A stretch of 64,000 bases of DNA from an uncultured Alphaproteobacteria bacterium (GTDB lineage: Bacteria; Pseudomonadota; Alphaproteobacteria; CAAHEQ01; UBA3637). A program made the translations under genes and the position numbers. The notes beneath the pieces are model-generated. The model did not search any database, was not told where the DNA came from, and saw only the letters and a program-made list of their open reading frames with translations. This document shows positions 11,059 to 46,594 of this stretch, one piece after another; position 1 is the first letter of the stretch, and every line of letters starts with the position of its first letter. The stretch spans positions 73,407 through 137,406 of the forward strand of contig CAKPYH010000004.1 in NCBI GenBank assembly GCA_934202735.1, read 5' to 3'.

Positions 11059-13128
11059 TCAAACTATAAATTGGTGCATTAAGCTTGATATGTCCCCCAA
11101 AAGGTAAACTCTGTTCCTGTGTTCTTCATTATTATCCTTTGATAAGATCATGTTATTATCAAAAAACACGTTAACTAATTTACAGCACCCATACATAACA
11201 TTGACAAAAGAAATATAATCACTTTCCTTTAAATGATTTTTTGCCAAATCTTTAACCTTATTATATGCATCAAAAACAGCTTGCTCATCAGGATTTTCAA
11301 TCAAAGTAGCATTGAATGTTTGTTGTCTTTCTTCTTTTGATATTAAGTTATCAATTCGTTGTAACGTTTGTGTGAAGGTTTGAAATTGCTCCGTAGAAAG
11401 TAAAGACGTAATGGTTGAAGCTTTCTTTTCAATTGTAACAACATTAATAGAGGATAAATCAATTCTATTAATCACGTCCGTAATAGAATATTTTAAATCC
11501 TCAGCCAACATAATGGACAGACGTTGTTTACTGAAAGAAATTACATAATTAACGAACTCTTCTTTTGTCGTTTTTTCCATGGTATAGAAATCATGATAAA
11601 GATCGGCAAGTTGAGAAACAACATCACTCAATGTCAGATCAAAATTAAATTTACGTATTATTGATAAAACACCAATAGTCAAACGTCGTAAGGCAAAAGG
11701 ATCTTGAGACCCTGTAGGTCTTAAATTTACAGCACATAAACCCAGAATAGTATCCAGTTTATCTGAAATAGCCATAACAGCTCCAAATTCAGATTTAGGT
11801 AACATATCATTAGCAAAACAGGGGCGATATTGATCTTCAATAGCGCAGCTTATTTCTTCGGAGTATCCTTCTTCTCTTGCATAAATTCCTCCCATAATTC
11901 CCTGAAGTTCTGAAAATTCACCAACAACGGCAGAAACTAAATCAGCTTTAAAAATTGGAGTAATAGTATTAATATTTTCCGATAAATTAAGTTTCAATTC
12001 TTTAGCCAAATAATTAGCAATTTTAGAAACTCGTTTCATTTTTTCTACGTAATTACCAAGCTTTGTCTGAAATATGACATTAACCAACTTTTTAGACTTA
12101 TCCATAAGAGTTGTATTTTTATCCTCTTTATAGAAAAATTCGCCATCCTTTAAACGTGCTGTTAGCACGCGTTGGTTTCCTTTGATGACATTCTCCATGC
12201 AGTAATTATCACCGTTTCTGACAAAGACAAACTGATTTATGAGCTTTCCATCCTTATAAACAGGAAAATATCTTTGATGATCTTTCATTGGGGTAATAAT
12301 AATAGGATCTGGAAGAGACAAAAATGATCTATCAAAATAGCCAACGGCAACAGTTGGATATTCAACGAGGTTTACAATCTCTTCTAACAGATCATCATCA
12401 ACAGAAACTTGAATACCATTATCAGATTCAATTTTTTTAATTTGTTGTAAAATTAAATTTTTCCTTTCTTTTTGATCAATAATAACAAAAGCTTTTTTCT
12501 GTTGTTCAAAATAGTTATCAACAGAGGAAACATCAAATGGCATGTCAGCCAAAGTCCGATGTCCAAATGTAAAATTTGAACTTGATAAAAACTCCAAGGA
12601 GAAATTAAGAGAAGTCTTTCCTAAAAAAGCTAACACCCATCGAATAGGACGTATAAATTTACCAACAAAAACATTCCAACGCATAGGATTCGGTTGATAA
12701 ATGGACATTATAAGTTTTGGTAGAACATTTTCTAATACAGATATGGTATTCTTGGCAGCTGTTTTTTGTTTTGCAAAAATATAATCTACCCCTTTGATCG
12801 CAGCAATATAAGTATCTTCAATCTTTAACTTTCTGCCTTGTAAAAAACCCTCAAAGGCTTTAGTTATATTTCCATGTTCATCATAAGCATTTGCCTTTGC
12901 AGGTCCTTTTATATCCAGTTCTTGTTCAGAAATCTGTGTAGCAATAGAACTTATATATAAAACCAACCTTCTAGGAGTGTGAAAAACCTGTAATCCATCA
13001 AACAATATTAAATTATCTACAAGTGCCTTTTCTATGTTTTCTTTCAAACTATTAGCCATATCTTTTACATACTGAGCTGGAATTTCCTCAATTCCAATTT
13101 CGAGTACAAATTTATCTTGTGACATCAT
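11059..13128 (-). CDS. glyS: Glycine--tRNA ligase beta subunit
   Basis: 689 aa, N-terminus MSQDKFVLEIGIEEIPAQYV typical of GlyS; immediately downstream of glyQ. Confidence 0.9.
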   Translation of the reverse strand: MMSQDKFVLEIGIEEIPAQYVKDMANSLKENIEKALVDNLILFDGLQVFHTPRRLVLYISSIATQISEQELDIKGPAKANAYDEHGNITKAFEGFLQGRKLKIEDTYIAAIKGVDYIFAKQKTAAKNTISVLENVLPKLIMSIYQPNPMRWNVFVGKFIRPIRWVLAFLGKTSLNFSLEFLSSSNFTFGHRTLADMPFDVSSVDNYFEQQKKAFVIIDQKERKNLILQQIKKIESDNGIQVSVDDDLLEEIVNLVEYPTVAVGYFDRSFLSLPDPIIITPMKDHQRYFPVYKDGKLINQFVFVRNGDNYCMENVIKGNQRVLTARLKDGEFFYKEDKNTTLMDKSKKLVNVIFQTKLGNYVEKMKRVSKIANYLAKELKLNLSENINTITPIFKADLVSAVVGEFSELQGIMGGIYAREEGYSEEISCAIEDQYRPCFANDMLPKSEFGAVMAISDKLDTILGLCAVNLRPTGSQDPFALRRLTIGVLSIIRKFNFDLTLSDVVSQLADLYHDFYTMEKTTKEEFVNYVISFSKQRLSIMLAEDLKYSITDVINRIDLSSINVVTIEKKASTITSLLSTEQFQTFTQTLQRIDNLISKEERQQTFNATLIENPDEQAVFDAYNKVKDLAKNHLKESDYISFVNVMYGCCKLVNVFFDNNMILSKDNNEEHRNRVYLLGDISSLMHQFIV

Positions 13129-13140
13129 TTAAAAACTCCT

Positions 13141-13983
13141 CTAACATTCTTTTGACAAATACAATTTTGCAATTTCTTTCATTACATTTCTAATACGAGC
13201 AATATAATTAGCGCGCTCAGTCACACTAATAGCTCCTTTAGCATCTAACACATTAAAGGTATGGGAACATTTTAAGGCAAAATCATATGCAGTATATATG
13301 TTTTCTAAAGCCACCAACCGTTTTGCTTCTTTTTCGTAATTATTAAAGTCCAACAAAAGTTGTTTATCGTCGCATAGTTCAAAACAATACTTAGAATGAT
13401 CATATTCTCTCTGATGATAAATCTCCCCATATGTTTCTGCAGGACTGTACTGAAGATCGTATACATTTTCAACATTTTGAAGATACATTGCTATTCTCTC
13501 AAGTCCATAGGTAATTTCTACGGTAATTGGCTTACATGTCATTCCCCCAATTTCCTGAAAGAATGTAAACTGGGTAATCTCCATTCCATCTAACCATACC
13601 TCCCATCCTTTTCCAAAAGCCCCAAGAGTTGGAGATTCCCAATTGTCTTCGACGAACCTAATGTCGTGTTCTTTCTTATTAAATCCAATAAACTCAAGGC
13701 TTTTAATATAAATGTCGACAATATCTATCGGAGAAGGTTTTATAATAACTTGAAATTGGTGATGTTGATAAAGACGGTTAGGATTATCTCCATAACGTCC
13801 ATCAGCAGGACGTCTTGAAGGTTCAACGTATGCTCGCGCAAGCTTTTTATTTCCGAGCGAGCCAAAAAACGTCAAGGGATTCATAGTACCTGCACCCTTT
13901 TCAACATCGTATGGTTCCCCAATGGTGCACCCTTGTTCTTTCCAAAAATCACGTAGTTTTAATTTTAGTTCCTGAAAATCCAT
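13141..13983 (-). CDS. glyQ: Glycine--tRNA ligase alpha subunit
   Basis: [35 protein letters not shown] matches GlyQ. Confidence 0.9.
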
Positions 13984-14459: not shown

Positions 14460-14993
14460 ATGTTACTTTCTCCTCAGGAGTATAAAATGAAAATACAATT
14501 ACGTCCTTTACGCCAACACGAAACGGAAGATGTGTATCTTCTTTTTCAAGCTATTCCAGCACAGGAGGAAGGTTTTGATAATTTTGCAAACGGCTTGTCA
14601 AAAACGGATTTTGAAAAGTTTATTTTACATAACATCGATCGGGCAAATGGTGTTGGGCTTGATAAAGGGTATTTAAGCCACACAATTTACATATTTTTTA
14701 TTGATGGGAAACCTGTTGGTATTTCCAAAATCAGGACCTATTCTGACAACACCCTATTAAAACGCGGCGGGCATATTGGTTGCGCAATCAGTCCCGCTTT
14801 CAGAGGAAAAGGCTACGGCACCTTATTGCTGGCCGAAACCATAAAAGAGGCTCACAAAAAAGGACTAAAAGACATTTTAATGGGATGTTATAGCAGCAAT
14901 TTACCCTCTAGTCATATGATTGAGAAGAATGGTGGTGTATTAGAAGAAAAAAGCAACAACATTTCATGGTATTGGATAAAACCAAAGACTTAA
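14460..14993 (+). CDS. GNAT family N-acetyltransferase (moron inside lysis cassette)
   Basis: GHIGCAISPAFRGKGYGTLLL acetyl-CoA binding motif; AT-rich, opposite strand to phage genes. Confidence 0.75.
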   Translation: MLLSPQEYKMKIQLRPLRQHETEDVYLLFQAIPAQEEGFDNFANGLSKTDFEKFILHNIDRANGVGLDKGYLSHTIYIFFIDGKPVGISKIRTYSDNTLLKRGGHIGCAISPAFRGKGYGTLLLAETIKEAHKKGLKDILMGCYSSNLPSSHMIEKNGGVLEEKSNNISWYWIKPKT

Positions 14994-15917: not shown

Positions 15918-18149
15918 TTAATTAGCGTGAACTCTACTGTCCTCAATAACGGCAGTAATTTCAACCTTGTCCGAGCGCGGTTTAATCCCAGTCACTCGCG
16001 CTAATGTCCCCCATTTGTCCTGTATTCCAACGGCAAAATGAGTTCGTTCTGAATCAGTCCCAGTATCAATAGGAATATCGGGCATATCCAGTAAAATGAC
16101 TTCTGTCGGCAGCGATCCGGCTTTTACCCGGTATGGCCCGGACAATTCGCCAGTGCGAGTACGTAAGGCTAAATAGTGAGCTTGGCTCTCGGTAAATTCT
16201 AACGGTTCCGATAGCGTGAGTGTTGTATCATTTACTGATATTACTTCGCCACCGGTTCCCCAATGAGGCATATCGTGTGTGATTGAGATTAAATCCCCAT
16301 AACTCGGGATTAAGCCCTCCAGTTCGGTTGAAAATGTCACAATGCGCCGGCGATAGCGGTTGGCCAACGCCATATAGACTGCTTCCCGGAGAGCTTGGTT
16401 TTTATCGGTGCAACCGAATAACTCAACAGTTGCCGTCTTAGCCGAGGCCGATTCTGCAAAGGTTCCCGTCACTTCCGATGTTTTCCAAGTTCGGTCCGAA
16501 AAATACTGAACGCAAACACTGTCCGCCGTATCTTCAGACGGCATGATATATTGAATAGTCAGGCTGTTTTTGACGATGTTTCTTGGCCCAAACAGAGCCA
16601 CCGGTATGGATTTGGGTTCGTCCCGGACAAAGCGAACAATCCCTCCTTGAATGTAGGGAACGGAACGTCCGACTTTGCAGGTTCGCGACAAGGCATCATA
16701 AACCGTCAATTTTGAATCAAAGACAGCATTAAACATATCACCGCGTGCGGCCCAAATCTGATCCAGCCGGTATAAACCTTCAAGATCTATGGATTTGTCG
16801 GTCAGCCTTGCACCATAGTTGGCCTTTAAGATATCGGCTATTACCCAAGCAATAGAGCGTGTCGGCACTCTGTCGGTCCAGCCACCTGACGGCGACCATG
16901 TTGGCAATTTTCTTGTGACAATACAATTTACCATTCGGCTAGACCTTTGCGACAGGTTGTTGGTGGCTTTCATCTGAATAGCCAGCAGCGTCACATTCCC
17001 ATAATCCGGCGTTGATACAATGAAGCCTTTTGCCGAGACCCAACGGAGCTCGTGTCCAGCGCGTGAAGATGTGTCTTTGTCATCTAACCGCGTGGCCCGG
17101 ACTACGTATCTGCCTTTTGCCACCGAATAACCATATGTCCGGTAAAGACCGTTGACCGTATTACCTGATAATGTTTCGGTCCCGAGAGTGAACCAGTCAC
17201 CCAAAGGATTATCCTCATCATCAATTTTACGGGCATCAATCCGCCATTGGACCGATTTTGTATTCAAGCCACCACTGTCGTTTGCGTAATAAAGTCCGCG
17301 CTGACAGGCGATATCTATCTCAATCCGATCAATTTCACTTTCGGTCGGGTTCAACACAAACGGCCCGATTGTATTATTTTTTAAGAGTTCCTGACCGGCA
17401 ACTTCAGGCGAAGTTACCACATCATCACGAAAGAGCGTGTTCTTCTCGCCCGGATTGAGAATCTGATATGTTATCTCTTCAAACGAGCTGTTCGGGGTAT
17501 CTTCAATTCTGATTTGTTCCACATCGTATTCGCCTTGGCCAATGCAATGGAGTTGATAAACATATTGTTCATCGTTGATATAACCATAATAAGGGGTGCT
17601 TGCAAAATCCGGATAAATCAGATGTCGGCCATAAATCACAGGGATTGGATTACCCAAGCGCGCCTGATTCCCTTGGGCTTGCAAAGAATAGGTCGGGCTT
17701 TGTGTGGCAATAGCACTTACGGATCCGCCGCCGTTTAAGGACGCTTTGGGTGTTGGTACAAAAGTATTGACCAACATACCGCCGGCCACAGACACACCGG
17801 CCGCCGCCAATCCGCCCCAAACGGCACCATAGGCTGCTCCCACAATACCGCCGGTATAAACGGAAGCGACAACAACTGCGACCATGAGAACAACCTGCAA
17901 CGGGTTGGATGATTTGCCGCCACCTCCCAAAGGAAGCGTGATGAAGCAAACAAGCGAATCCGGCTGAACAATGTCATGCCAAAACTTTCTGAGGACCGCA
18001 ACACCGTTAATCATACAAATTGTCGGGCGTTTCAGGTCCACTTTCTGTTTTTCAATCAGTTGCCAGATCGTTTTCCCTTCATCAAGGACACGATCTATCC
18101 GCCCCTTGTTCGGCTGAAAAGGGTTTGTAATGTGTGAAAAATAAATCAT
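15918..18149 (-). CDS. Phage tail tip protein, lambda gpI-like N-terminus fused to gpJ-like host-specificity region
   Basis: Gly-rich hydrophobic stretch LPLGGGGKSSNPLQVVLMVAVVVASVYTGG like lambda tail assembly I C-terminus, followed by ~600 aa J-like region. Confidence 0.55.
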   Translation of the reverse strand: MIYFSHITNPFQPNKGRIDRVLDEGKTIWQLIEKQKVDLKRPTICMINGVAVLRKFWHDIVQPDSLVCFITLPLGGGGKSSNPLQVVLMVAVVVASVYTGGIVGAAYGAVWGGLAAAGVSVAGGMLVNTFVPTPKASLNGGGSVSAIATQSPTYSLQAQGNQARLGNPIPVIYGRHLIYPDFASTPYYGYINDEQYVYQLHCIGQGEYDVEQIRIEDTPNSSFEEITYQILNPGEKNTLFRDDVVTSPEVAGQELLKNNTIGPFVLNPTESEIDRIEIDIACQRGLYYANDSGGLNTKSVQWRIDARKIDDEDNPLGDWFTLGTETLSGNTVNGLYRTYGYSVAKGRYVVRATRLDDKDTSSRAGHELRWVSAKGFIVSTPDYGNVTLLAIQMKATNNLSQRSSRMVNCIVTRKLPTWSPSGGWTDRVPTRSIAWVIADILKANYGARLTDKSIDLEGLYRLDQIWAARGDMFNAVFDSKLTVYDALSRTCKVGRSVPYIQGGIVRFVRDEPKSIPVALFGPRNIVKNSLTIQYIMPSEDTADSVCVQYFSDRTWKTSEVTGTFAESASAKTATVELFGCTDKNQALREAVYMALANRYRRRIVTFSTELEGLIPSYGDLISITHDMPHWGTGGEVISVNDTTLTLSEPLEFTESQAHYLALRTRTGELSGPYRVKAGSLPTEVILLDMPDIPIDTGTDSERTHFAVGIQDKWGTLARVTGIKPRSDKVEITAVIEDSRVHAN

Positions 18150-18265
18150 TTATTTATTCCATAAAAAATCCCCCACAAATATGTAAGGGAAAATTATCTC
18201 CGCAGTAATACAAAGGTAAGGATAAGAATTATTCATGCCATAAAATGATAAGATAGGATTTAATC

Positions 18266-18643
18266 TTATTCATAATTTTCTAATTCGGTTGTTAATGATT
18301 CCACAATCCGATCTTTTTCTTTTTTAGATAATGTTTTTACATTATCTCTAATATGATTTCTTAAAGAAAGCAGATCTTCATAATCTAGATTTCCAACAAC
18401 TTTGGCATTTTTAATTTCATTAGGTTCAAAATGAAAAACTCTATTGCAAGATACAAAACTATCATGTTCTAGGTAATTATTCTTTTTTTTAGCCAAAGGC
18501 ATACATTCATATAATTTTCTATTTAAAGAATTTATACAAAAGAATAAATTATCGTCAACTACAACACAAACAGAGTATTTATAATTGCTAGGAATAATTT
18601 GCTTATTAAAAAGATACAGGACGTTTCCAATTTCTAATGCCAT
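18266..18643 (-). CDS. Putative toxin partner of Panacea-domain protein (unknown fold)
   Basis: 125 aa, AT-rich, start 2 nt after stop of upstream Panacea gene. Confidence 0.3.
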   Translation of the reverse strand: MALEIGNVLYLFNKQIIPSNYKYSVCVVVDDNLFFCINSLNRKLYECMPLAKKKNNYLEHDSFVSCNRVFHFEPNEIKNAKVVGNLDYEDLLSLRNHIRDNVKTLSKKEKDRIVESLTTELENYE

Positions 18644-18644
18644 T

Positions 18645-19163
18645 TTAGAAAACCATTTTTTCTGTAAGATCTCCCATGTCTTCTAAATCGGCAAGTACAT
18701 CTTCGTTATTAATCATATCTTCATAAGGTATGGGACAAGAGCGTGTATTTTTTAATTCTTCTTTGTGTTTTTCCCATGCTGGATGAATATGATTCTTGTT
18801 TTTTACTTCGGAAAATGATAAATCTGCGTATTCTGAAATTCCATGTTCCAAAGCCTCTATATCCGTATCAGAAAAAACATCTAATGTTGGACTCGAGTTA
18901 GCTTTAAAACCGTTCTTTGAACATTTATAAAAGGGAACATTTTGCGTAATTTCTAGTAAATCTTTCATTAAGCTTGGAACGGTACCATAATTCATCGCTA
19001 CATAATTTTCCCCATAAATAGGACGCCCGTATTTATTTAAATGATAACAATCAGCATCAAACATCACTTTCATAATGTTATATTTATTGATACCTGGCTT
19101 TCTATTCAGTATCCAAAGCAAACACTGCATAGCCTTTTCTGGATTCTTTGTAAACTTTATCAT
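18645..19163 (-). CDS. Panacea-domain (DUF4065, SocA/GepA-like) putative antitoxin
   Basis: IMKVMFDADCYHLNKYGRPIYGENYVAMNYGTVPS matches Panacea core (KLLY.AD..HL...GRP..G..Y.A...GPV). Confidence 0.55.
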   Translation of the reverse strand: MIKFTKNPEKAMQCLLWILNRKPGINKYNIMKVMFDADCYHLNKYGRPIYGENYVAMNYGTVPSLMKDLLEITQNVPFYKCSKNGFKANSSPTLDVFSDTDIEALEHGISEYADLSFSEVKNKNHIHPAWEKHKEELKNTRSCPIPYEDMINNEDVLADLEDMGDLTEKMVF

Positions 19164-19291
19164 TTATCCTCTCAATCTTCGAGTTCTTCTGCAAGGTAAA
19201 AGCTTTTTAATAATGAATGTGCTAAAAACTACTTTTTATTATACAGTTTTTTTAAAAAAAGTCAAGTTATTTTCTATATGGCGTAAATCAT

Positions 19292-19696
19292 TTATTTTCC
19301 TTTTACCCTATAATAGCTATCAATTTGCCAGCCGCACAGGCGCATAGACGGCAAATCCTGAAACACCACACCACTATCGTGGCAACAATGGAGAACGCCT
19401 CCACCATCAACATCTAGCCACAGGCCAGCATGAACGGGATATTTAGATTGCCTAAGCAAAACGACATCACCGTCTTGCGGCTTTTCAACTTCATTAAATG
19501 CCCGGAAAGCAGGATCCTCTTTGAATGCAATTAAAACGCTCCGGAGATTATCCGGATTAACGTTTACCGCCGGCACATCTATGCCGTATTCGTGCTTCAG
19601 GATCCAGCGCACCATTCCCCAACAGTCAAATTCATCAGGGCCTTGCGCACCGGCAACCCAGGGCAAGCCTATATATTTACAAGCAAAATGTGTCAT
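19292..19696 (-). CDS. Phage tail assembly protein K-like NlpC/P60 peptidase
   Basis: FDCWGMVRW (catalytic Cys) and HAGLW (His) spacing typical of NlpC/P60; position before tip protein. Confidence 0.65.
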   Translation of the reverse strand: MTHFACKYIGLPWVAGAQGPDEFDCWGMVRWILKHEYGIDVPAVNVNPDNLRSVLIAFKEDPAFRAFNEVEKPQDGDVVLLRQSKYPVHAGLWLDVDGGGVLHCCHDSGVVFQDLPSMRLCGWQIDSYYRVKGK

Positions 19697-19716
19697 TTAA
19701 TTACTTTTTTATCTGA

Positions 19717-20520
19717 TTAATTAATTATAGTTTTTACGATATTAATGAGTGCAGAGATAAGGTAGTAAAGAGATGTAAATGCAATAACTCCACCGATAAA
19801 AGGATTTGTATGAAAAAAATTAAAAAAAGCAAAAAGATATCCACCATTTAATTGCCAATAAGAAGTATTTGTTTTTAAGTGGTTATCAGCCACCCTCTGC
19901 AAAATGTTTGCAAAAATATCAACTTTTCTTAGCGTTGATTGATGAAGTTTAATATAATTTTTTTCTTCAAAAGCTTGAGCCTCTTCTTCTCCAGACAAAA
20001 AATTTGTATCAGTTATTTTATTTTTTTTCACTATAGAAAAAAGACGTGGGTGCTCTATATAACCAACGCCATATGCATCTATCAATAAACGAGCCAGATC
20101 CTGTTTCTTATCATCTTGTATAACATATGGTTTTCCACCTAAGATTTTATAACGTAATTCAATGGCTGCAAAACCAAAATTTTCATCTCGCATATTCCAA
20201 TGAACGAATGTTTTATCTTCATTTTTGTGTACAAAATCATAAAATCTTTTGAGCATAGATTTTTCCAGTTTGTCGTAAGATTTTTCTATTTTCCTCTTAT
20301 CTATGGCTTGTAACTCTGCTTCCTTGTGTATAGAAAAAGAACGTGTTTGACCATCATTTAATTTCCTCACAGCTATAGATGTTATTTTCGGTGAGCTACC
20401 ATCTGTGCGATCATAGAAACTTTCACAAGAATAATGTATGAGTAAAACGTTTTTAGAATCCGCCATCAAAGTTCTGATCTGAGCTAAAGCATCTTTTCTT
20501 CTTTTTAAATTGATTTTCAT
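19717..20520 (-). CDS. AT-rich moron: unknown cytosolic domain plus C-terminal two-TM hairpin (candidate abortive-infection effector)
   Basis: C-terminus GGYLFAFFNFFHTNPFIGGVIAFTSLYYLISALINIV; no recognisable motifs in N domain. Confidence 0.3.
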   Translation of the reverse strand: MKINLKRRKDALAQIRTLMADSKNVLLIHYSCESFYDRTDGSSPKITSIAVRKLNDGQTRSFSIHKEAELQAIDKRKIEKSYDKLEKSMLKRFYDFVHKNEDKTFVHWNMRDENFGFAAIELRYKILGGKPYVIQDDKKQDLARLLIDAYGVGYIEHPRLFSIVKKNKITDTNFLSGEEEAQAFEEKNYIKLHQSTLRKVDIFANILQRVADNHLKTNTSYWQLNGGYLFAFFNFFHTNPFIGGVIAFTSLYYLISALINIVKTIIN

Positions 20521-20580
20521 ATTTTAACCTATATTCCTTCTAAACTTACGTATACATTAAAAATAAAAAAAAATCAATAA

Positions 20581-21123
20581 TTATCGTGTTAATCCCGGAT
20601 AGTTTTTAACGGTATAGTTTTCTGACGGAAAAGACCTGTTCCCGATATCCATCATGCGGGCCGTAGCCGTTATTTTATAACAGTCCACATGAATATCAGT
20701 AATAACCAAGGTTATCGGCGGATCCATCTGCGGCGTTGTCAGGTCGTCAGACAGATATGGCCGGTATGTCAGCTCGATCATATCCTGTGTTTCAATAGCC
20801 CGGTCAAGATAAGCGATCATCTCGGTTGAAACGTTGTCGATCGTGACCGAAATCTCAGGTGTCGGCGTGTTGTTGACCGGTGGCAATTCCAGATCAAACG
20901 CCATGGCGATAAATAAAACGGCTTGACCCGCGTCCAACGGGGCTGAATCTTCCAACACACATAAGTGGTCTTGATAATCCCGCACGACCCGAATAGCGGT
21001 CGGCGCACCCAAAGCGTCCTTAAAACTAGGGTGGCGCAGTTCCAATGTGTGCAAAATCACAACATCGCTGGGCGCAGAAGCATAGGCTTCTTTCAAAGCT
21101 TGGGAAAGCGTTTCATCTGTCAT
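20581..21123 (-). CDS. Phage minor tail protein (L-like position)
   Basis: Phage-type GC, placed between tail fibre cluster and K-like gene; no diagnostic motif. Confidence 0.35.
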   Translation of the reverse strand: MTDETLSQALKEAYASAPSDVVILHTLELRHPSFKDALGAPTAIRVVRDYQDHLCVLEDSAPLDAGQAVLFIAMAFDLELPPVNNTPTPEISVTIDNVSTEMIAYLDRAIETQDMIELTYRPYLSDDLTTPQMDPPITLVITDIHVDCYKITATARMMDIGNRSFPSENYTVKNYPGLTR

Positions 21124-21126
21124 TGT

Positions 21127-21873
21127 TTATCCGTTATTTGAGTTGGTTGCATCGGGCTCGTTATACCCCAAAAAGACAACTTTGACATAACCGCCATTAC
21201 CCAAAAAGACCTTGTTGTTAAAATCTGTCAAATCATTGATTTTAACATCTATGGAATTGCCAAGCTTGGGTGTATTTAAGTCGTCCCCAGGATAACCGCT
21301 GCCCCGCATAAAATATGTTGTATCATTATTTAAAAACAAGTTGCCGTTCTTGGTATCCGTATAAAGCGGGATATGGGTTTGACTGACGGTTGCATTGATA
21401 ACGGCCGTGCCTCCAATCCCCACTTCGTTGGGACAATCTTCGGCCATAGCCCCTTGCCGGGAATAGGCTTCTTGCCCTCCATTGGCACACAAGTACAAGA
21501 CATCATCAATATAACTGAGATCCGAGTTCATCTTGGAATTATAAACGCCTTTTGGCTCTCCCACGTGATAGGTATGTGTCCCGGCAGACAAGCGAAATAC
21601 GCCCCGGATAAATGCCCCACTGCCACCCGAAGCGCCAAAAGCCGACCACCCAAAAGCCCATTCATTGGCTCCACCCGAACCGATCAGAGTACATAAACAC
21701 CAAGCATCTTGATCCAGTTCAAATGTCCCGTTGGCACCGATTTCACTGCTTTCGGCCAGAACGGTATCTTTTGTATAAATCCCCTTTGGATAGGCCCTTG
21801 CCAATAATTTTTGCGTCAGTATAATCATATTTTCTCCTTTATGTTTTGTCCGCATCGGCATAGCATGTGGCAT
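21127..21873 (-). CDS. Glycine-rich phage tail protein (fibre/tip associated)
   Basis: Gly-rich repeats GSGGANEWAFGWSAFGASGGSGAF; tail module context. Confidence 0.3.
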   Translation of the reverse strand: MPHAMPMRTKHKGENMIILTQKLLARAYPKGIYTKDTVLAESSEIGANGTFELDQDAWCLCTLIGSGGANEWAFGWSAFGASGGSGAFIRGVFRLSAGTHTYHVGEPKGVYNSKMNSDLSYIDDVLYLCANGGQEAYSRQGAMAEDCPNEVGIGGTAVINATVSQTHIPLYTDTKNGNLFLNNDTTYFMRGSGYPGDDLNTPKLGNSIDVKINDLTDFNNKVFLGNGGYVKVVFLGYNEPDATNSNNG

Positions 21874-27105: not shown

Positions 27106-27693
27106 TTATAAATCTTTTCCAAAATTATTAATAAAAGATTGCTTTTGTACAGTTGTTAAAGAAATTTTAGTTTTATTGGCAATCCATTCTATCAACTTTT
27201 GAGGAGTGTCTTGTGGGGTGAAAATAAAATCCGCAGAGTCCTGTAAAGCTTTTATGTCTTGTTCAGAAGGATGTTCAATTATTTCTCTTGCCTCTCTAGG
27301 AGATATTTTATCCCTTTGGCATATTCTAACAACTTGAGCATCTTTTGGGCAGTCACAAAATATTAGAATAGAATTTGGAAAAATGAATTTGAACTCTTTA
27401 TATACATCTTTATGTCGGAATCCATCTAATATAATACCATTTTTCCAACTAATAGATGATGCATTTTCCATTGTCCAGTGCATAAAACCCCGTTGACCAA
27501 GCTGAGTAATCAAATTTTGACCTAAATTTTGTAAATTGGATCGGGAGGGTATGATACTATTTCGCAGACAATACTCTCTTAAAACTCCTCCAAAAGAAAG
27601 AACTTGTAAACTATAATTTTGTGCTATAGCTTTTGTAACAGTTGTCTTCCCACTCGCAATAACTCCAGCTACACCAATATAAAGCTTTCTCAT
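27106..27693 (-). CDS. P-loop nucleoside/nucleotide kinase (NMP-kinase/uridine-kinase-like)
   Basis: Walker A IGVAGVIASGKTT; ILDGFRHKD resembles NMP-binding LLDGFPR. Confidence 0.6.
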   Translation of the reverse strand: MRKLYIGVAGVIASGKTTVTKAIAQNYSLQVLSFGGVLREYCLRNSIIPSRSNLQNLGQNLITQLGQRGFMHWTMENASSISWKNGIILDGFRHKDVYKEFKFIFPNSILIFCDCPKDAQVVRICQRDKISPREAREIIEHPSEQDIKALQDSADFIFTPQDTPQKLIEWIANKTKISLTTVQKQSFINNFGKDL

Positions 27694-29321
27694 TCTCTGC
27701 CTTTTTTTTGTGTTAATGAGTCAAAAAGAGAAGGTTGACAACTTTTTTCCACCGTATCTAAGATAAGCCAAGCTCTTCGATCATTTTTGGGAAATGGATA
27801 TGGTGTTTCATATTTCTTTACTCTAGCAATATGTATAAAACTAATATAACGTGAATCTTTTCTTTTTTCCCAGAAATAAGGATCATAATCAGCGCAAATT
27901 TCAGAACTATATTTCTTTAATTCTTCCATTTTTTCGGGGGATAAATCAGAAAAATATTCTACTTTCCCTGCAGTTATCTCCCCTACAACTAAACCTCCGG
28001 ATTTTTTTAATAAAATAATATCTCCTTCTTTGACTTTCTGAAATGGAGGACATTTTACTTTTGTAAACCTAGTTTCTATGGTTTTTTCGCCTTTTAAAAT
28101 TAAATCTAAAAAAGGTTGAATCAAGATTGCTAAATGTTGAGGTTTATGTTCGTTTTCATTCATAATTAATAGATCCTTTAATGTTTGATATACTATAGTA
28201 ATATCTCGTTTTATTTGATTTTTGTCAAGGTTCGAAAAATTCAATAATATTGTCTCAGAAATTTCTTCAAGATTTTTTTCCTTAGAAATTCCATCTAGAA
28301 TCAAACTCATTGTTTTCCACCCCTCAATTTTTAGACCTATATTAGTAGAGGTCCATAAATCTATATTCTTACGTATCGGTGAACGTCGACTCACAGAATA
28401 CAGAACAGCATCTTCAGGATTCTTTATCAAAATTTTTGGAGCTATATATTTACTGAGTTCTTCATTTTTCTTCTTGATTTTTACTTTTATTTTCCCTACT
28501 AAAAAATCTTCCCACTCTTCTTCAATTCGGCATTCTACATTTTCTGGTAACTTTTTACCATCATTAAGAAAAATAATCATATCTCCTTTTCTCCAATTTT
28601 TAGAAGAAATTTTGTTTTTCTCTAATGTTTCTTTTTCGAAGAAAGGTGTTTCATAAGATACGGCATCTGGTTCCAACTTGATAAGATTAAATCCTAAATT
28701 CATTGCTTTTATGATTACTTTTTTTCTTTCTTTCAGGGAAGATGGCCTTGTAAAAGCTGGGAAAAGAGCTATTCCTATACTCGAATAGTGACCAAAAGTT
28801 AATTGTTGAGCTCGTCTCATAAATAAATCATAATACTCTGGATACCAAGGAGGATCAAAAAAAACCATATCAGCAATGCCTATTAATTCATTGGGTATTT
28901 TATTTTCTGCGTTATAATGAATAGTTGAAATGTTTTTATTGAGTATATTTTTCTTTATATTTTCTAAAGTTGAGCCACTTTTATCCAGGATGATAATTTT
29001 TGTTTCTGGAAGAAAATAAGAAATATAAGAGGCAAGAATCGGAGCACCAAGAAAAGCCATTTTACGAGGTAATTCAAATGGATGATTATTTAATAAATTC
29101 CTGAAAGCTTTTTCCATTGAATCTGTGGAAAACCACCACTCATAGTCTAAACAATGTGGTAAATGTAAATTTTGTTTTAGCCTTAGTAACCCTATTTCTG
29201 CATTTTTCTTATTTTGTGTCCAATTCCTGTAAAGTTTTATTTTGCGAATTGAGTCTATCCCTTTAAGAGAAAAAGAGCCATTTTCTTGTATAATGAGTTT
29301 GTCTTTTACCATTTCTTCCAA
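27690..29321 (-). CDS. Amino-methyltransferase domain (DPPW, MT-A70-like) fused to C-terminal ASCH/PUA-like domain
   Basis: AFLGAPILA (motif I) .. IIILD .. VFFDPPWYPEYY (motif IV); C-terminus ILKGEKTIETRF = ASCH GxKxxExR. Confidence 0.55.
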   Translation of the reverse strand: MEEMVKDKLIIQENGSFSLKGIDSIRKIKLYRNWTQNKKNAEIGLLRLKQNLHLPHCLDYEWWFSTDSMEKAFRNLLNNHPFELPRKMAFLGAPILASYISYFLPETKIIILDKSGSTLENIKKNILNKNISTIHYNAENKIPNELIGIADMVFFDPPWYPEYYDLFMRRAQQLTFGHYSSIGIALFPAFTRPSSLKERKKVIIKAMNLGFNLIKLEPDAVSYETPFFEKETLEKNKISSKNWRKGDMIIFLNDGKKLPENVECRIEEEWEDFLVGKIKVKIKKKNEELSKYIAPKILIKNPEDAVLYSVSRRSPIRKNIDLWTSTNIGLKIEGWKTMSLILDGISKEKNLEEISETILLNFSNLDKNQIKRDITIVYQTLKDLLIMNENEHKPQHLAILIQPFLDLILKGEKTIETRFTKVKCPPFQKVKEGDIILLKKSGGLVVGEITAGKVEYFSDLSPEKMEELKKYSSEICADYDPYFWEKRKDSRYISFIHIARVKKYETPYPFPKNDRRAWLILDTVEKSCQPSLFDSLTQKKGRE

Positions 29322-46517: not shown

Positions 46518-46594
46518 ATGGTGAGCGTGCTGGGATTCGAACCCAGGGCCACCTGATTAAAAGTCAGGTGCTCTACCAGCTGAGCTACACACTC
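46518..46594 (-). tRNA. tRNA-Lys (anticodon UUU), CCA encoded
   Basis: Manual fold: acceptor GAGTGTG/CACGCTC, anticodon loop CTTTTAA, T-arm CTGGG-TTCGAAT-CCCAG, discriminator A, CCA. Confidence 0.9.

Follow-up and report, generated by a model that had tools for sequence, protein, structure and literature searches.

A candidate PanAT toxin–antitoxin cassette with a predicted MazF-fold toxin between tail genes of a lambda-like prophage in an uncultured alphaproteobacterium

Background

The Panacea domain and the PanA antitoxins that carry it were named in a study which predicted 1,268 PanAT toxin–antitoxin (TA) loci, with toxins (PanT) falling in 88 clusters; antitoxin first is the commoner gene order among them, and PemK-type domains occur among the toxins (Kurata et al. 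2022, PMC8832971). The present work concerns a putative pair of this kind, panA and panT, found in a 64,000-nucleotide stretch of DNA (the window, to which all positions refer) from an uncultured Alphaproteobacteria bacterium (lineage CAAHEQ01; UBA3637; GenBank assembly GCA_934202735.1, contig CAKPYH010000004.1, positions 73,407 to 137,406 of the forward strand), where the two genes stand between two tail genes of an element that looks like a prophage.

Several of the published toxin clusters are MazF-like, namely T5 (with toxins of Arcticibacter and Chryseobacterium bovis), T6, T8 and T25, and a T5 representative was assigned to EndoA/MazF by HHpred at 99.5% (PMC8832971). The toxins of P. moraviensis (T6) and B. 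ruminantium (T25), which have no CDD match and are EndoA/PemK/MazF-like by HHpred, are toxic, are neutralised by their own PanA and inhibit protein synthesis. A complex with PanA was demonstrated for the P. moraviensis pair, stable PanA:PanT complexes were obtained in all five of the five pairs assayed, and PanATs were classed as type II systems (PMC8832971). Direct neutralisation of a toxin by a stand-alone Panacea domain has been shown, while in other PanAs appended Phd-C, PAD1 or ZBD elements neutralise, and Panacea has been proposed as a possible sensor (Ernits et al. 2023, PMC10440598).

In the MazEF, Kis-Kid and PemIK systems the antitoxin is of the AbrB/SpoVT type or a ribbon-helix-helix protein, whereas here it is a Panacea-domain protein. 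The founding Panacea pair, SocAB of Caulobacter crescentus, has an antitoxin with the same PF13274 domain; its toxin, SocB, has the replication clamp as its target and no relation to MazF, and its antitoxin, SocA, acts as a ClpXP adaptor. Among the published clusters, SocB forms a separate one, T10 (Kurata et al. 2022, PMC8832971).

The pair in the window resembles the MazF-like PanATs of Kurata et al. in that a stand-alone Panacea antitoxin comes first and is followed within a few nucleotides (nt) by a toxin of about 120–150 amino acids (aa), and in that the toxins have no CDD or Pfam match and yet an EndoA/PemK/MazF fold. It differs in its setting, the window cassette being a prophage moron between gpK and gpJ, whereas the rows for these systems in the parts of that source covered here are marked 'NotPhage', with no such setting among the tested systems. 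The reading preferred here, at a probability of roughly 0.75, is that the locus is a PanAT TA cassette carried as a moron in the tail module of a lambda-like prophage, with PanT a MazF-like RNase neutralised by PanA.

The panA–panT pair

The two genes and the ribosome-binding site of the first are as follows.

18645..19163, minus strand: panA, 172 aa, Panacea-domain antitoxin without an extra N-terminal domain
18266..18643, minus strand: panT, 125 aa, putative endoribonuclease toxin of predicted MazF/PemK fold, translationally coupled to panA
19167..19173, minus strand: Shine-Dalgarno sequence GAGAGGA, 3 nt 5′ of the panA ATG, read directly from the sequence

Both open reading frames (ORFs), their starts and their junction were verified where the first-pass annotation had placed them. 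The junction reads TAA-A-ATG, i.e., the spacer is a single nt and the panT ATG lies two bases past the panA stop, within the limit of 100 nt or less in the PanAT criteria of Kurata et al. (2022). A Shine-Dalgarno sequence precedes panA, and none was seen before panT when the sequence at the junction was read, which fits the translational coupling that had been proposed for the pair. At the local guanine-plus-cytosine (GC) content of 25–32%, a stop-free run would arise by chance with a probability of about 8e-6 over 125 codons and about 1e-7 over 172 codons; these low values, together with the many homologues of both proteins, exclude chance ORFs.

The 172-aa product is a genuine Panacea-domain (PanA) protein, as the first reading of the sequence had it. 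In a profile search it matches PF13274 (SocA_Panacea) with 55.1 bits against a cut-off of 25.7 (E 1.7e-14), residues 30–130 aligning with profile positions 1–112 of 113, and it contains the Panacea motif that had been quoted for it, FDADCYHLNKYGRPIYGENYVAMNYGTVPS. It also matches phrog_1281 (E 1e-19) and has 38 homologues at 41–72% identity besides its own cluster at 100%. The C-terminal tail (about residues 131–172) is acidic and conserved, with the consensus IxYEDMIxNxEVLxDLxELGxLTENMVF. No solved relative of PanA was found by a sequence search of the PDB, and PADLOC and NCBIfam returned nothing for either PanA or PanT.

Family and predicted fold of PanT

A word-indexed homology search returned a single relative of PanT, at 43% identity and likewise encoded directly 3′ of a Panacea gene, the two overlapping at TGATG. 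On that result PanT looked, wrongly, like an orphan protein, until an exhaustive HMMER search with a two-sequence profile revealed a family of no fewer than 265 clusters (at 50% identity) at E ≤ 1e-3, 59 of them at E ≤ 1e-10, with nearly all members of about 115–135 aa. An alignment of 65 relatives was built and each relative was scanned against the family libraries: PF02452 (PemK_toxin) was matched by 14 of the 65, in every case below the threshold (best E 2.7e-4), and phrog_1936 by 10 (best E 4.5e-5), while any other family was matched by one relative only. Searches of PDB sequences with the PanT profile gave chance-level matches and no MazF; tblastn of PanT found no match in phages, and in plasmids a few weak ones, all annotated as hypothetical.

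With the 65-sequence alignment, AlphaFold2 produced a model of PanT with a predicted local distance difference test (pLDDT) score of 97.8 and a predicted template-modelling (pTM) score of 0.90; the model from the two-sequence alignment (pLDDT 56) was unusable. When the former was searched against the PDB with Foldseek, the top 50 matches were all MazF, Kid, MoxT or related MazF-type toxins (probability 0.98–1.00), with query-normalised TM scores mostly of 0.52–0.66, and of 0.39–0.40 in two poorly superposed chains. Two independent fold-search methods gave the MazF/Kid fold, beside which the model has an extra C-terminal helix (residues 107–124). Because the fold searches agree with one another, PanT is assigned the MazF/Kid fold (an SH3-like barrel plus C-terminal helix) as a model-based prediction.

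The link to a published system came from profiles as well. The PanT family's hidden Markov model (HMM) matches the Arcticibacter T5 toxin (locus L047, 3558–4016) with E 5.9e-9, and with 5.6e-22 after one iteration. Locus L047 is the PanAT pair of Arcticibacter svalbardensis MN12-7, entered in Dataset S1 as WP_016196096.1 / WP_052017021.1, cluster T5, order A|T, with a gap of −4 (PMC8832971), and the gap of −4 found here agrees with that entry. PanT would thus appear homologous to the known MazF-like PanTs, the comparison at cluster level having been made with a T5 member only.

The first-pass annotation had proposed a Panacea antitoxin with a fold-less partner, possibly a new PanT family. Its PanAT reading stands as far as the Panacea protein, the anatomy of the module and the location among tail genes are concerned, whereas the part on the partner had to be given up: the deep-alignment model shows a MazF/Kid fold, relatives match PemK_toxin and phrog_1936, and profiles connect the family with T5. 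The record is corrected in that a candidate new toxin family becomes a divergent MazF-fold PanT of a catalogued and partly validated type. The relatives form a coherent PanT subfamily that is missed by Pfam, NCBIfam and PADLOC, and a dedicated profile would improve its annotation. A type III TA system was also considered, as ToxN and CptN share the fold, and was rejected: positions 17900–20700 hold no tandem repeat array and no Rfam match.

Putative active site of PanT

The PanT family was compared by profile–profile alignment (hhalign) with four toxins of the canonical type, namely E. coli MazF, Kid, B. subtilis MazF and ChpBK, all of which were verified as PemK_toxin matches. Although weak (P about 5e-4 to 6e-3, probability 6–13%), the alignment has a sensible register. 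The catalytic residues of MazF are R29 and T52 in E. coli and R25 and T48 in B. subtilis. In the register obtained, K22 of PanT falls on R29 of MazF, N38 on the invariant N40, and 'HDSF' on 'RDGV' / 'RDSV'. Conservation in 185 family sequences is highest at N38 (89%), K22 (88%, with His in 9%) and G6 (83%), followed by I37, S62 and D61, and the retention of a basic residue at the position of the catalytic Arg suggests a functional groove in PanT.

Set against the MazF and Kid toxins, PanT falls below the PF02452 cut-off (it has no match at E ≤ 1, and the gathering score of this MazF/PemK model is not reached), has, in this weak register, Lys for Arg and no conserved equivalent of Thr52, and carries the additional C-terminal helix. 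The Lys/His-for-Arg variant of PanT and the acidic tail of PanA offer specific hypotheses that are open to mutagenesis.

Conservation of the pair

Through the PanA alignments, 31 viral and 47 genomic loci were retrieved, 78 in all, 73 of which have an ORF directly downstream of panA. The HMM of the partner family matches the ORF directly 3′ of PanA in 55 of these 73 loci, and after one iteration 62 of the 73 downstream ORFs belong to the PanT family; the gaps between the two genes are mostly −4 to +3 nt. The retrieved loci belong to Cloacimonadota, Fibrobacterota, Bacteroidota, several proteobacterial classes, Verrucomicrobiota, Chloroflexota, relatives of Planctomycetota and gut viral contigs, and chromosomes of bacteria from many phyla carry the pair as well. 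No homologues of the tail genes that flank the pair in the window were present in the flanks of the other 78 loci. Neither these loci nor the site without the pair in phage fragment MT839233.1 (see below) suggest an operon of more than three genes, in agreement with the corresponding criterion of Kurata et al.

The PanT family seems to go almost only with a single clade of stand-alone PanAs. With more distant PanAs the partner has been swapped or there is none. In two Planctomycetota metagenome-assembled genomes (MAGs; loci L052 and L053, 3727..4308) a 193-aa Zeta-toxin/AAA_33-like protein is encoded about 100 nt after PanA, and on a viral contig (L007, 1703..2173) what comes after PanA is a small terminase subunit and no toxin. 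In a Magnetococcales MAG (L081, 3543..4577) a 344-aa ORF follows PanA and matches the PanT family with E 6.5e-19; about 220 aa longer than the members of that family and with no Pfam match, it may be fused to a further domain.

Insertion in the tail module

The pair lies in an AT-rich interval between a gpK-like gene (upstream) and a gpJ-like gene (downstream), in agreement with the first-pass placement between tail genes J and K. The features of this interval and its flanks are the following.

18150..19291, minus strand: inserted cassette (moron), 1142 bp, 28.8% GC, from the gpK-like stop to the gpJ-like start
19238..19265, minus strand: sigma-70-like promoter TTGACT-16 nt-TATAAT, an 11/12 match to the consensus, about 75 nt 5′ of the panA start
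18160..18190, minus strand: terminator-like hairpin with T-run, 9-bp stem with 4 GC pairs, 76 nt past the stop of panT, immediately ahead of the gpJ-like start
19292..19696, minus strand: gpK-like tail protein (NlpC/P60), PF00877 (E 7.7e-10) and phrog_329, outside the module
15918..18149, minus strand: gpJ-like central tail fibre/tip protein of 743 aa, PF13550, PF24801, phrog_469, phrog_31 and phrog_32, outside the module

The GC content of the cassette is 0.29, against 0.47–0.48 in the flanking gpK and gpJ genes, a drop of 19 points. The closest phage relative of the gpJ-like protein (68.7% identity) is encoded by MT839233.1, a human faecal phage fragment in which the gpK homologue (134 aa, 233–637) is followed by gpJ (642–2870) with 4 nt between them, so that an empty site is seen where the window has the cassette. 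A megablast search of positions 17900–19800 against phages gave no match. On account of the deviant GC content, the empty site in MT839233.1 and the lack of tail-gene homologues at the other PanAT loci, the cassette is regarded as a mobile moron inserted at this place and not as a tail component. The filled and the empty site offer a clean natural comparison for the gain of a PanAT cassette as a moron between gpK and gpJ, and a moron of this kind agrees with the idea that prophages carry TA modules along, possibly as defence cargo.

The lom and bor genes of lambda are morons in late regions, with outer-membrane or virulence factors as cargo. The present cassette is likewise an autonomous insert of deviant composition between conserved structural genes, with promoter- and terminator-like signals; here the cargo is a TA pair. 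Terminator-like sites in the region number 4, against 1.3 expected. The sequence was also searched for a flanking target-site duplication and for a convincing operator, with no yield beyond weak AT-rich inverted repeats. One of these, imperfect (19198..19213 / 19236..19251, 16 nt, 81% complementary), spans the −10 element of the putative panAT promoter, and its region includes the palindrome TAAAAGCTTTTA just downstream; it could be an operator, although such repeats are common in DNA this AT-rich, and was not counted as evidence.

Proposed function and alternative explanations

Transcription of the cassette probably runs from its own sigma-70-like promoter to its own terminator-like hairpin, and with these signals expression in the lysogen could be independent of the late tail operon. 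PanA would be translated from its good Shine-Dalgarno sequence and PanT by termination–reinitiation at TAA-A-ATG, an anatomy that would hold the toxin at or below the level of the antitoxin. To judge from its fold and from the validated MazF-like PanTs, PanT is most likely a sequence-specific, ribosome-independent endoribonuclease that blocks translation, with G6, K22 (His in some members), N38 and D61-S62 forming the RNA-binding and catalytic groove. PanA most likely neutralises it by direct binding (type II), the contact being made by the Panacea core or by the acidic C-terminal tail, in the way that the acidic tail of MazE fills the groove of MazF. The role of the cassette would probably be prophage-encoded abortive-infection defence against other phages and/or prophage stabilisation. 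A more specific proposal, which should be taken as speculative and rather improbable, is that the family is a large, unannotated MazF-fold subfamily with a substrate or chemistry unlike that of canonical MazF, used in prophage abortive infection with Panacea sensing the phage; that the substrate or chemistry could differ follows from the Lys or His for Arg, the missing conserved Thr52 equivalent and the extra C-terminal helix.

Several points weigh against the reading of the locus as a PanAT cassette with a MazF-like toxin. Taken alone, PanT has no match in Pfam, NCBIfam or PADLOC, its only match being to phrog_1936 ('MazF-like growth inhibitor') at E 0.024. Pairwise BLASTP gives only a marginal similarity to the T5 toxin of Arcticibacter (24% over 54 aa, E 0.014), and the T5 link depends on profiles. 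In the weak hhalign register, Lys stands where MazF has its catalytic Arg and T52 of MazF falls on Ala51 of PanT, which is unconserved; because of these two positions, the chemistry of PanT may differ from that of MazF or be lost. Among the published toxins, that of Chryseobacterium bovis (T5) proved toxic in E. coli, with no rescue by its own PanA, and the T8 MazF-like PanT of F. xanthum was non-toxic (PMC8832971). The promoter and terminator of the cassette are consensus matches only, and promoter-like sites are fewer in the region (3) than in shuffled sequence (8.0). The toxicity of PanT, its neutralisation by PanA and its RNase activity are all inferred.

The two active-site substitutions and the harmless F. 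xanthum partner would also be expected if PanT were a MazF-fold protein that is catalytically dead or non-toxic, part of a module that has decayed or been repurposed, e.g., for an RNA-binding or regulatory role with its PanA partner, and the suggestion that Panacea may serve for sensing, without neutralising in every case (Ernits et al., PMC10440598), could be accommodated as well. The strong conservation of K22 (or His in its place), N38 and D61-S62 in the 185 sequences argues instead for a maintained active or binding site, selection on a toxin would be expected to produce just such a tight coupling to PanA across phyla, and MazF-like PanTs of T5, T6 and T25 are toxic (PMC8832971), so this explanation is held to be unlikely. 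Less probable still, and by a good way, is a SocAB-like (type VI) arrangement in which PanA would be a proteolytic adaptor that hands PanT to ClpXP without sequestering it: SocA is the founding Panacea protein, as the Pfam name SocA_Panacea recalls, whereas the five of five stable PanA:PanT complexes, including that of P. moraviensis, were of type II (PMC8832971), and the antitoxin-first order with tight coupling is typical of that type.

The remaining two alternatives concern the identity of the genes themselves. That the partner lacks a recognisable fold and represents a new family of PanT toxins was a natural conclusion from the single sequence, with its empty library searches, its one word-indexed relative and a two-sequence model of low pLDDT; the 265 or more clusters found by HMMER and the MazF/Kid assignment of the high-scoring model by both fold searches refute it at the level of the fold, and with the repeated PemK_toxin and phrog_1936 matches of the relatives and the profile link to T5 leave it a very slim chance. 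Slimmest of all is the case for panA and panT as accessory genes of the tail or of virion assembly rather than an autonomous cassette, for which their position inside the tail operon, on the strand of gpK and gpJ, would speak. The 19-point drop in GC, the direct abutment of gpK and gpJ in MT839233.1, the 78 other loci without homologues of the window's tail genes and the presence of the pair on chromosomes of many phyla all speak against it.

Neighbouring genes in the prophage

The surrounding element looks like a prophage that reaches from roughly 14 kb, beside glyQ/glyS, as far as a tRNA-Lys at 46519..46594. Its likely limits are the glyS/glyQ region (11059..13983, 14460..14993) on one side and this tRNA-Lys(UUU) on the other, and at the glyQ-proximal end there is a GNAT acetyltransferase gene on the opposite strand, which may be cargo.

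A second AT-rich moron (19717..20520, minus strand, 30.5% GC) lies between a gpL-like (DUF1833) gene and the gpK-like gene. It encodes a protein of 267 aa with a hydrophobic segment at the C-terminus and a match to phrog_8766 (E 5e-73, function unknown). The phage homologues nearest to it, with 42% identity, come from Streptococcus prophages (Javan series), where they lie about 3 kb from an end of each record, which indicates that it has moved across phyla. The N-terminus of the gpJ-like protein holds a gpI-like 'tail assembly protein' segment (phrog_32, residues 73–179, Gly-rich and hydrophobic), so that the functions of lambda I and J seem to be fused, there being no separate gpI between K and J. 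Just upstream of the gpL-like gene, 21127..21873 (minus strand) encodes a glycine-rich protein of 248 aa with a weak match to Gly_rich_2 (E 0.012) and none to PHROG. Upstream of the tape-measure gene (27106..27693 and 27690..29321, minus strand), the annotation of the equivalent contig (L002, 1..1538) has a kinase-like gene (AAA_17/AAA_18) and another with a faint match to ASCH, which are unusual neighbours for a tail module.
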